Shown: in pieces, positions 7,932 to 9,297 of the stretch
Layout of the letters: each line of letters starts with the position of its first letter
Position numbering within the stretch: the stretch's first letter is position 1
Notes under the pieces: model-generated
Told to the model about the DNA's origin: nothing
The model's database searches: none
What the model saw: only the letters and a program-made list of their open reading frames with translations
NCBI GenBank assembly: GCA_040767805.1
Contig: JAXGNU010000004.1
Location: 32,001-96,000 of the forward strand
DNA: 64,000 nucleotides
From: Thermovirgaceae bacterium
GTDB lineage: Bacteria > Synergistota > Synergistia > Synergistales > Thermovirgaceae
Direction of reading: 5' to 3'
Position numbers and translations under genes: made by a program

Positions 7932-8677
7932 CAGCCGTGACCGACATAGAACTGCTCTCAAAGCGGGCAAGGATGAAGGCGGCCAAGGCCGAGGCCGGGC
8001 TCTTCGAACGCCCCTCGCCGGAGAGGGTCCGGAGTTCCATCGACCATACACTCCTCACCGCCGGGGCCTCCCTGGAGGACGTGGCGGCCCTGTGCGACGA
8101 GGCGGTGCGCTTCGGGTTCGCCTCGGTCTGCGTCCCCTTGAGCTGTGTTCCCGACGCCCGGCGATTCCTCTTGGGGTCGGCGGTCAAGGTGGGGACCGTG
8201 GCGGCCTTCCCCCTGGGGTCCACCCCGATACCGGTTAAGACCGCCGAAGTACGCTGGGCCCTGGACAACGGGGCCGACGAAGTGGACGCCGTGGTGGATA
8301 TCAGGGCCGCCAGGGCCCTCGACAGGGGAGCCCTCCGGGACGACCTTTCGGCCCTGAGGGAGGCCTCCCGGGGGGCTGTCCTCAAGGTGATCCTCGAGAT
8401 GCCCCTGCTGAACGACGCCCAGGCGGTCACCGCGGTGATGCTGGCCGAGCAGGCCGGCGTGGATTTCCTCAAGACCTGCACGGGCTTCGCCGGTGGCGTC
8501 ACCTTCTACCACGTGGCCCTTTTGAGGACCGCCGCCTCCGACAGGGTAAGGATAAAGGCTTCCGGCGGGATCAGGACCTACGCGGCGGCGGAGATCCTCG
8601 TGGCCCAGGGGGCCGACAGGCTGGGGACGTCGAAGGCGACGCAGTTTTTGACCCCCCCGGAGGGCAAAGCGCTTTAG
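7928..8677 (+). CDS. deoC: Deoxyribose-phosphate aldolase
   Basis: IDHTLL, FPLG, GADEVD, LKVILE, FLKTCTGF, KASGGIRT, RLGTS. Confidence 0.93.
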   Translation: MTAVTDIELLSKRARMKAAKAEAGLFERPSPERVRSSIDHTLLTAGASLEDVAALCDEAVRFGFASVCVPLSCVPDARRFLLGSAVKVGTVAAFPLGSTPIPVKTAEVRWALDNGADEVDAVVDIRAARALDRGALRDDLSALREASRGAVLKVILEMPLLNDAQAVTAVMLAEQAGVDFLKTCTGFAGGVTFYHVALLRTAASDRVRIKASGGIRTYAAAEILVAQGADRLGTSKATQFLTPPEGKAL

Positions 8678-8712
8678 TCGATCCCCTGCCGGGGCCCAGG
8701 GAAGGGCTATAC

Positions 8713-8744
8713 AAAAGGGCCGGAGGCATGCGCCTCCGGCCCTT
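8713..8744 (-). terminator. Intrinsic terminator of the rrn operon (possibly bidirectional with deoC)
   Basis: 13-bp stem AAGGGCCGGAGGC / GCCTCCGGCCCTT with a T run on the minus strand just after 5S. Confidence 0.8.
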
Positions 8745-8766
8745 GGTTCATCCTGTAAAAAAAGGT

Positions 8767-8883
8767 TTCCGGCGGCGTCCTACTCTCCCACCCCTCGAAG
8801 AGGCAGTACCATCGGCGCTGGAGGGCTTAACTGCCGGGTTCGGCATGGGTCCGGGTGTGTCACCTCCGCCATGGCCACCGAAA
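8767..8883 (-). rRNA. rrf: 5S rRNA
   Basis: Reverse complement contains CCCATGCCGAAC, GCCGATGGTACTG, GGGAGAGTAGG; terminal stem; ~117 nt. Confidence 0.96.
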
Positions 8884-8895
8884 ACCTTTTAAATA

Positions 8896-9061
8896 CCGTG
8901 AATCGTAAGTCGTAAATCGTGAGTCGTAAGTACCGTGAATCGTGAATCAGAAGAACCGTGAATCGTGAGTCGTAAATCGTGGGTCGAAAACCGTGAATCG
9001 CAAGGTCAAATTCATAGGCTGATCGTTTTGCTTTTACGTTTTGCTCTTACGATTCACGACT
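8896..9061. repeat. Heptamer tandem array (CGTGAAT/CGTAAGT/CGTAAAT/CGTGAGT) with an inverted arm, continuing at 10370-10388 after the IS
   Basis: About 14-15 units on + at 8897-9003; reverse-complement units CTTACG-ATTCACG-ACT at 9046-9061 and TACG-ATTAACG-ATTAACG at 10370-10387. Confidence 0.9.
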
Positions 9062-9074
9062 CGTATATTCTTTC

Positions 9075-9264
9075 GTCGGTTCTAAAATGAACCCTGTAAG
9101 GCAGTAGGTTTCGGGACGGCGAAGACCGATTTACGACTGAGGCCCTAGAGCCTGTTCGTAAGATAGGTCTAGTCGTTCCCACCGAGAACGGACGGTATGC
9201 TTGGGGCCCGGTAAGCCCGCATTTACGAGGCCGTTCCCTGGGAACAATGCCGTCCCGACAAACC
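9075..9264 (+). ncRNA. Bridge RNA (target-binding loop followed by donor-binding loop)
   Basis: Outer stem TCGGGACGGC 9111-9120 / GCCGTCCCGA 9249-9258; guides TTTACGACT 9130-9138, TCGTAAG 9156-9162, ACGGTAT 9192-9198, TACGAG 9224-9229; 5' and 3' ends approximate. Confidence 0.88.
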
Positions 9265-9297
9265 AACTGTAGCATTTCCTACGGGGGTGTTGAAGCT

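Follow-up and report, generated by a model that had tools for sequence, protein, structure and literature searches.

A Decodable IS110-Group Bridge RNA with Nested Guide Loops Predicted in a Thermovirgaceae Bacterium

Does the non-coding left end of an insertion sequence in a Thermovirgaceae bacterium (phylum Synergistota) encode an RNA whose guides can be read against the element's own ends and insertion site? The question is raised by a stretch of 64,000 nucleotides (nt) from contig JAXGNU010000004.1 (assembly GCA_040767805.1, positions 32,001 to 96,000 of the forward strand), referred to here as the window and numbered from its first letter. An earlier note, made from the letters alone, had described positions 9075 to 9264 as an IS110 bridge RNA with four guides arranged as in the bridge recombinase element IS621 of Escherichia coli. 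Sequence comparison indicates that the window very probably carries a genuine IS110-group element of the bridge-recombinase kind, apparently active and with a bridge RNA that can be decoded. Of interest are the nested scaffold of this RNA, a natural pair of target-loop variants, an unpaired core position in the left donor guide, and homing to a heptamer repeat that includes a ribosomal RNA (rRNA) spacer.

Four Guides and Their Decoding

The element, its junctions and the putative guides are located as follows.

9062 to 10369, + strand: IS110-group insertion sequence of 1,308 bp (one CT core counted), delimited by a second copy of 100% identity
9053 to 9059, + strand: left target (LT), TTCACGA, the same in both full copies; matched by its guide at 6/7 positions and one U:G wobble
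9060 to 9061, + strand: CT core at the left junction; CT is the sole sequence common to both junctions
9062 to 9297, + strand: left end of 236 nt, predicted to encode the bridge RNA; the right donor CGTAT begins at 9062
9130 to 9138, + strand: left target guide (LTG), TTTACGA-CT (TTTACGACT), 8/9 identical to the left flank plus core at 9053-9061 (TTCACGACT)
9156 to 9162, + strand: right target guide (RTG), TCGTA-AG, 7 nt, exact reverse complement of 10368-10374 (CT-TACGA)
9163 to 9164, + strand: putative target-loop handshake guide, AU, able to pair with donor positions 6-7 (A10366, T10367) but not with target position 7
9192 to 9198, + strand: left donor guide (LDG), ACGGTAT, identical to 10361-10367 and followed by G9199
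9221 to 9229, + strand: right donor guide (RDG), ATTTACGAG
10361 to 10367, + strand: left donor (LD), ACGGTAT, which is the right end of the element
10368 to 10369, + strand: CT core at the right junction
10370 to 10374, + strand: right target (RT), TACGA

All four guides match the element's own target and donor, as the earlier note had claimed: the LTG at 8/9 positions plus a wobble, the RTG at 7/7, the LDG at 7/7 and the RDG at 6/6, for a total of approximately 30 guide pairs. At the odd position of the LTG an RNA U would face a bottom-strand G, and this wobble is seen for both full copies of the element. The RDG had been given as the 6-nt string TACGAG (9224-9229), which is exactly the reverse complement of 9060-9065 and a valid contiguous reading; the preferable reading is a 9-nt guide in discontiguous pairing with 7 donor bases, ACGAG with CTCGT and AT with the next AT if the two middle U residues are skipped. 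The joint test of these matches required a 9-mer with at most one mismatch to the left flank plus core, a 7-mer antisense to core and right flank, a 7-mer identical to the right end, and a 6-mer antisense to core and left end, the last three exact. All four together were found in 0/100,000 dinucleotide-preserving shuffles of the 236-nt left end, in which the single matches occurred at 1.6%, 2.3%, 1.9% and 8.7%, and all four in order in 0/2,464 control windows of 236 nt elsewhere in the 64 kb on both strands; a chance origin of the guide matches is ruled out by these two controls.

The order and strand senses of the guides follow the rule published for IS621, bearing out the layout proposed in the earlier note. 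In IS621 the 5′ strands of the two loops have the sense of the top strand and pair with the bottom strand over 8-9 nt, and the 3′ strands are antisense to the top strand and pair with it over 4-7 nt (PMC11208160); the 5′ and 3′ loop strands of the window would likewise pair with the bottom and top strands, respectively. Both RNAs are ordered as a 5′ stem-loop, a target loop and a donor loop, and the LTG is 9 nt including the core in both (PMC11208160, PMC11208158). The IS621 RDG places 9 nt on 7 donor bases with two U residues flipped out (PMC11208160, PMC11208158), as the window RDG is able to do. Following the RTG of IS621, the handshake guides A81 and U82 pair with donor positions 6-7 after strand exchange (PMC11208158), and the window has an AU at this place facing donor A6-T7, with a GU linker ahead of the RTG; the surrounding AGAT is invariant in 8/8 of the aligned relatives described below. 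These comparisons of RNA with IS621 rest on the text of the two papers and not on a nucleotide alignment.

Two features of the guides depart from IS621. The window RTG is 7 nt long, whereas that of IS621 is 4 nt. The LDG of IS621 comprises 8 nt, seven plus a C that pairs the core C (PMC11208160, PMC11208158), whereas position 8 of the window LDG is a G, a peculiarity that the earlier note had already remarked and that proves to be a genuine departure. The core is thus included in the LTG, RTG and RDG, and the LDG runs on as G9199-C-U, leaving the core C unpaired unless G9199 bulges. Across the eight aligned relatives position 8 is G in three, C in four and U in one, with CU next in 6/8, and it does not look constrained to pair in the window's clade.

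The Element, Its Recombinase and Its Copies

The recombinase gene is the only gene of the element.

9298 to 10314, + strand: putative bridge recombinase gene, 338 amino acids (aa), assigned by Pfam and by homologues of solved structure

The protein matches PF01548 (DEDD_Tnp_IS110; E 2.1e-25) and PF02371 (Transposase_20; E 1.4e-24), and residues 5-327 of 338 align with the recombinases of ISCro4 (PDB 9t56; E 1.5e-42) and IS621 (PDB 8wt6; E 2.5e-41). ISCro4 is the best-scoring solved homologue and was compared by protein alone. The homology to IS621 is full-length and includes the catalytic residues of both domains: D9, E58, D101 and D104 align with D11, E60, D102 and D105 of IS621, and S250-G251 aligns with S241-G242, the catalytic Ser and following Gly of the C-terminal Tnp domain. 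The gene is flanked by a long left end of 236 nt (9062-9297) and a short right end of 55 nt (10315-10369). This is the pattern of the IS110 group, which has a long left and a short right end and is reversed in the IS1111 group (PMC11208160); in IS621, too, the RNA is encoded in the long left end, the right end is short, the core is CT, and the promoter is divided between the two ends and completed at their junction. Bridge or seek RNAs of the IS1111 group are described as belonging to the same protein family with the same guide logic, but they are encoded 3′ of the gene in the right end, and the elements carry long subterminal inverted repeats, whereas the window RNA lies in the left end.

The boundaries of the element are fixed by comparison of its copies. 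The assembly, 1.65 Mb in 29 contigs and 80.6% complete, matches the element at three places. A second full copy, at an unrelated locus on contig C6 (G000), is 100% identical over the whole 1,308 bp and has identical CT/CT ends, the boundaries that the earlier note had assumed; copies with differing boundaries were sought as a sign against its reading, and this copy has the same ones. Around the element the two copies share no more than ACGATTCACGA-CT to its left and CT-TACGATT to its right, and have unrelated sequence further out. A third copy (L003, G000:C2:125986-126330) retains only the last ~330 bp, with the same right end followed by CT-TACGG. The 2-nt core and defined ends that mark the IS110 group are therefore reproduced in the C6 copy, and the right end also in the truncated copy. 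At the left junction of L003, a heptamer that shares its final 7 nt with the left target is followed by internal sequence of the element, with no CT core in between, which does not suggest a standard core-to-core event.

Could the RNA gene be genuine and the element nevertheless have become an immobile fossil in this genome? The truncated third copy, the LDG without a core pair (G9199), the absence of a circle junction from contigs, and a perfect target that stands unoccupied 146 bp away, the only one in the genome, are each in keeping with such a loss. Two full copies at unrelated loci are, however, 100% identical over 1,308 bp, the reading frame of 338 aa and all catalytic residues are intact, the same ends are joined to other flanks in public sequencing runs and in the metagenome relative L085, and rare circles would be invisible in contigs. 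A fossil is very unlikely on this evidence, and the element can be described as intact, as the earlier note had called it.

Helices and Covariation of the Bridge RNA

The predicted bridge RNA would extend over ~180-190 nt on the + strand, from ~9077 to ~9260, with the following helices.

9078 to 9093, + strand: 5′ stem-loop, GGTTC / GAACC; the weakest helix in relatives (86% of cells paired, many gaps)
9111 to 9120, + strand: outer closing stem, 5′ strand; 10/10 Watson-Crick pairs with 9249-9258
9123 to 9127, + strand: target-loop inner stem, 5′ strand; 5/5 Watson-Crick pairs with 9166-9170, 94% of cells paired, 3/5 pairs kept in L084
9140 to 9153, + strand: target-loop terminal stem-loop; 100% of cells paired, 2/4 pairs covary, also kept in relatives outside the phylum
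9166 to 9170, + strand: target-loop inner stem, 3′ strand
9175 to 9181, + strand: donor-loop basal stem, 5′ strand; 7/7 Watson-Crick pairs with 9239-9245, all 7 pairs doubly changed in relatives
9186 to 9191, + strand: donor-loop inner stem, 5′ strand; 6/6 Watson-Crick pairs with 9231-9236, 4/6 pairs covary
9204 to 9218, + strand: donor-loop terminal stem-loop; 100% of cells paired
9231 to 9245, + strand: donor-loop stems, 3′ strands
9249 to 9258, + strand: outer closing stem, 3′ strand

The positions, strings and four stems listed in the earlier note are all exact in the window, and every one of those stems is Watson-Crick throughout; between them they leave two internal loops, each capped by a short terminal hairpin. 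The fold that it had called for, of 9062-9297, reaches -94.7 kcal/mol against -74.8 +/- 4.8 kcal/mol in 200 shuffles (z = -4.17), with none of the shuffles as good, and the region is accordingly structured.

Relatives of the element are distributed unevenly. No close relative was found in reference genomes, where the best 80 of 433 confirmed hits have 28-39% protein identity and fall mostly in Proteobacteria and Bacteroidota. Metagenomes supplied one full relative at 86% (L084), one at 97% that is 5′-truncated (L085) and one at 42% (L086). Within the window's phylum a homologue at E <= 1e-40 occurs in 7/268 genomes, the window's own included, at 40-49% identity. A covariance model built from the window RNA finds seven of these relatives: L084 at E 1.9e-50, five same-phylum loci at 2e-14 to 2e-8, and L086 at 2e-4, all of them upstream of a recombinase gene on the same strand; the same model gave no match at the same-phylum locus L169. 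Applied to the 80 genome loci of 28-39% protein identity, the single-sequence model gave seven weak partial matches (best E 0.037 and 0.048), each covering one loop, upstream of the gene and on its strand.

In the resulting 8-sequence alignment 93.0% of cells pair, against 29-48% when the 3′ partners are slid by 1-3 columns, 28/41 pairs are changed on both sides, covariation is found in all eight helices, and 0/500 shuffles reach any of the observed pairing measures; these counts rest on an alignment fitted to the covariance model, which favours structure, and this must be held against them. A structure-blind alignment (MAFFT with RNAalifold, 6/8 sequences) recovered, with compensatory changes, both the outer stem and those of the target loop, and garbled the donor-loop stems through misalignment. 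When the donor loops alone were aligned with MAFFT their stems were misregistered, and no model was made from that alignment. Several helices contain G:U pairs, in keeping with an RNA of the + strand.

These data bear on an explanation in which the repeats are DNA signals, that is, subterminal copies of the ends and of the preferred site that are bound as double-stranded DNA, with the stems incidental. The right end is directly repeated in the LDG and the left end, inverted, in the RDG, which does resemble subterminal repeats, and evidence of a transcript is absent from contigs of RNA libraries, which cannot show one. Incidental stems would not, however, be expected to survive double changes at 28/41 pairs, with 93% pairing against at most 48% in slid partners; the G:U pairs would turn into A:C if read from the opposite strand; and the layout copies an experimentally established RNA whose recombinase, that of IS621, is a homologue of the window protein. 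Binding as DNA alone is thus highly improbable, and an RNA remains the preferred reading of the left end.

Nested Scaffold

The IS621 RNA consists of a 5′ stem-loop and two successive stem-loops that extend up to its 3′ end, separated by an 11-nt linker (PMC11208160, PMC11208158). In the window, unlike IS621, which has no closing stem, both guide loops are enclosed by the 10-bp outer stem, with linkers of only 4 nt and 3 nt, and they do not form two separate successive stem-loops. The outer stem is the best-supported helix of the RNA, with 9/10 pairs changed on both sides in relatives. The same arrangement holds in 6/6 sequences of the window's clade, in which the pairs closing just the target loop number only 3-7 and those spanning both loops 12 or more.

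Relatives outside the phylum are folded differently. Twelve such loci were folded, in two of which the motifs were not found, and in minimum free energy (MFE) structures 13-21 pairs close the target loop alone in 7/10 evaluable loci but not in the other 3/10. In these relatives the equivalent 5′ strand pairs with sequence just 3′ of the target loop, and the donor loop is a separate, later hairpin; this alternative closing of the target loop is also visible in the covariance-model alignment to L012. AGAU and the LDG are 27-31 nt apart in the window's clade and 34-65 nt apart in relatives outside the phylum. The outside-phylum loci (L007, L012, L019, L025, L037, L040, L062 and others; at most 39% protein identity) have the same gene order as the window and share with it the target-loop terminal hairpin and the AGAU after the RTG, and several of them have a conserved ACGGUAU-type LDG and a GCAU..A.AAGG-type RDG.

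Taken over these sequence comparisons, the outer closing stem is real, and in the window's clade the stem that closes the target loop at its base also encloses the donor loop. The earlier note had proposed a different scaffold with an extra closing stem: the stem itself stands, given its double changes and its recovery without structural input, but it is not just an extra, as it corresponds to the basal target-loop stem found elsewhere. The window, L084, L086 and the five same-phylum loci may even constitute a distinct class of bridge-RNA scaffold, with the donor loop inside the target-loop basal stem at a three-way junction; this is a tentative suggestion that we consider possible but doubtful. 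Were it correct, a rigid nested scaffold would enforce a two-RNA synapse or need a different synapse geometry, since in the IS621 synapse the loops lie ~80 Å apart and the target and donor loops are contributed by different RNA molecules (PMC11208158), and the RNA would represent a naturally compact design with a 7-nt RTG. A search of full-text literature found the nested topology undescribed in the texts covered, a search that did not extend to the figures or supplements of a 2026 preprint; this preprint, of October 2026, reports 32,190 bridge RNAs and 86 models, "many" of which are said to deviate from IS621.

Target Guides and Insertion Flanks among Relatives

The earlier note had called the RNA naturally reprogrammed, and L084 agrees with this description. 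At 86% identity, this relative is unchanged in length, donor ends and donor loop, while its target guides and flanks are changed. The RTG of L084, GCGTGAG, faces the flank CT-CACGT, so that an A-to-G change in the guide matches a T-to-C change in the target, and its 5′ G faces T as a wobble. In the LTG, TTCACGT-CT against the flank TTTCCGT-CT, an A-to-U change in the guide matches A-to-T in the flank, and two distal positions mismatch. The LTGs of the same-phylum loci L166 and L167 (44-46% identity) differ by one base (C/U), their left flanks differ correspondingly, and the RTG of L165 matches its own flank at 7/7.

When guides and flanks were scored all against all, a small sample of four left and six right flanks, RTGs scored 6-7/7 on their own flanks versus 2-5.5 on the flanks of other guide types, the window RTG 7/7 on its own and at most 5 on those of other elements, and LTGs 7-8.5 of 9 on their own. 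The target guides therefore appear to covary in part with the flanks, and the donor guides to stay with the conserved ends. In L166 and L167 the LTG fits its left flank only when shifted by 1 nt from the register of the window, giving 7 flank bases and the core C followed by a mismatch; the RTG, LDG and RDG are in register, and the two elements occupy different insertion sites.

The flank comparison also bears on whether the structure is instead a 5′ leader that regulates translation of the transposase, its guide matches being a by-product of insertion into repeats. The structure does lie directly upstream of the gene, and a further hairpin at ~9270-9290 overlaps the ribosome-binding region of the recombinase gene. 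A leader would have no need, however, of copies of both ends and both target halves in the order and sense of IS621, a combination reached in 0/100,000 shuffles, and the target guides of relatives change with the flanks while the donor guides are fixed. A regulatory leader is scarcely credible, and the matches continue to be read here as guides of a bridge RNA.

Promoter and Expression

The sequences that would drive transcription are split between the two ends of the element.

10351 to 10356, + strand: -35-like TTGACG in the right end
9064 to 9071, + strand: candidate -10, TATATT (9064-9069) or TATTCT (9066-9071), usable only once the element is circularised

Joined at the right end-left end (RE-LE) junction, these give either TTGACG, a 15-nt spacer and TATATT (10/12 matches in a sigma-70 consensus scan) or TTGACG, a 17-nt spacer and TATTCT (9/12). 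A promoter-like consensus match across the junction is found in 4/4 elements (window, L084, L166 and L167; 10-11 of 12 in the relatives) versus 0/4 linear left junctions, and in 7/7 relatives with a right end found, TTGAC stands 4-6 nt ahead of the left donor. From this, the predicted RNA start falls close to 9076-9079, at the base of the 5′ hairpin. In the linear window no sigma-70-like site and no terminator-like site was found in 8700-10500 on either strand.

In public runs from sludge and digesters the stretch is present in 20/24 of those listed, six of which are recorded as RNA, one of these being a guess. Neither a circle junction nor an empty site was found among the contigs of four runs, which cannot reveal rare circles. 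In runs X15 and X16, loose contig ends at 9060 and 10372 join other flanks to the same element ends. The right flank there reads TAC and then enters another tandem repeat, which L085 has as well. The last 7 nt of one left flank match the LTG at only 4/7, and the contigs stop short of the target loop; this flank may be an off-target site or may belong to a variant element with other guides.

Proposed Mechanism and Weighing of the Evidence

By homology with IS621, excision would join the right end of the element to its left end, and the junction would set the -35 (10351-10356) before the -10 (9064-9071), such that the RNA would be made mainly from the circle. The 338-aa DEDD/Ser recombinase would bind the bridge RNA, the first loop of which would read the target, with the LTG pairing the bottom strand of TT(T/C)ACGA-CT and the RTG the top strand of CT-TACGA. 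The second loop would read the donor junction, with the LDG pairing the bottom strand of ACGGTAT and the RDG the top strand of CT-CGTAT. Ser250 would then cut after the CT core, strand exchange would be aided by the AU handshake guide (9163-9164) on donor positions 6-7, and the element would land in CT-bearing variants of a dispersed heptamer repeat. Transcription, RNA-protein binding and catalysis of recombination by the window system are in this way inferred by analogy.

Several observations weigh against this reading. In the RNA itself, the LDG lacks core pairing, having G9199 where IS621 has a C that pairs the core C, and the donor-loop handshake positions G9230 and C9231 would pair just one of target positions 6-7 (G6). 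The LTG (9130-9136) and RTG (9156-9162) are complementary to each other because the left and right target halves are direct repeats, and they form 7 pairs in the MFE fold, a possible mutual sequestration. Among the relatives, the LTG of L084 fits the window flank (8/9) better than its own (7/9), the RTG of L086 scores 5/7 on its flank, and the left boundary of L170 could not be decoded. An Rfam 15 scan of 8500-11000 at E <= 1 left the RNA region unmatched, returning only 23S, 5S and a chance small RNA (sRNA) match. The preferred -10, TATATT, implies a 15-nt spacer, and a 17-nt spacer leaves the weak -10 TATTCT. Lastly, contigs from RNA libraries cover 9080-9185 and 9106-10055, but contigs cannot show transcripts, ends or strand.

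The mutual complementarity of LTG and RTG is also seen in L084 and L166.

The element adds a decodable, apparently active bridge system from a bacterium of anaerobic digesters belonging to a small phylum (268 species-level genomes). It refines rather than overturns current knowledge, because the basic mechanism is known and bridge RNAs have already been predicted by the tens of thousands (PMC11208160; 2026 preprint). The window and L084 would constitute a natural reprogramming pair with a shared donor loop and different target loops. The nested scaffold, supported by covariation, puts to the test which elements of the IS621 architecture can be dispensed with, and could inform efforts to make bridge RNAs shorter or more rigid. 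For the biology of the host, the element would home to CT-bearing heptamer variants, one of which is situated between 23S and 5S in the sole assembled rRNA operon.

Target Sites and the rRNA Locus

The window copy lies antisense between the 5S gene (8767-8882, - strand) and the 23S gene (from 10415, - strand), in the only 5S/23S locus assembled, beside the following features.

8897 to 9000, strand not assigned: tandem array of the heptamer CGTGAAT / CGTAAAT, which supplies the target sequence family
8903 to 8916, - strand: unoccupied site matching both target guides at 14/14 positions, the sole perfect match in the 1.65-Mb assembly

Heptamers of this family, which includes further variants, also occur at 10371-10387, and at least 22 arrays are dispersed through the assembly in intergenic DNA; they are found in the rRNA spacer of a congener as well. 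Judged from its flanks, the target of the element is a CT-bearing variant junction of this heptamer tandem repeat, a kind of target that differs from that of IS621. The perfect unoccupied site lies 146 bp upstream of the element on the other strand, and the other target-like sites in the assembly comprise one with one mismatch and four with two. The congener, G251, has a homologous 5S-23S spacer without the element, and the repeat array there differs in detail. Given that no terminator-like site was found in 8700-10500, the 5S gene would need transcription through the 1.3-kb insertion or a promoter of its own.

Minor observations concern individual relatives. The same-phylum locus L170 (189-308) has a 51-nt insertion in the donor-loop terminal hairpin and one in-frame TAA in its recombinase gene, and L168 has an 18-nt insertion at the same place in that hairpin. 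The protein of the enterobacterial relative L040 is no nearer to IS621 (E 1.4e-48) than the window's recombinase, and the matching E. coli records are annotated only as "IS110 family (RNA-guided) transposase".

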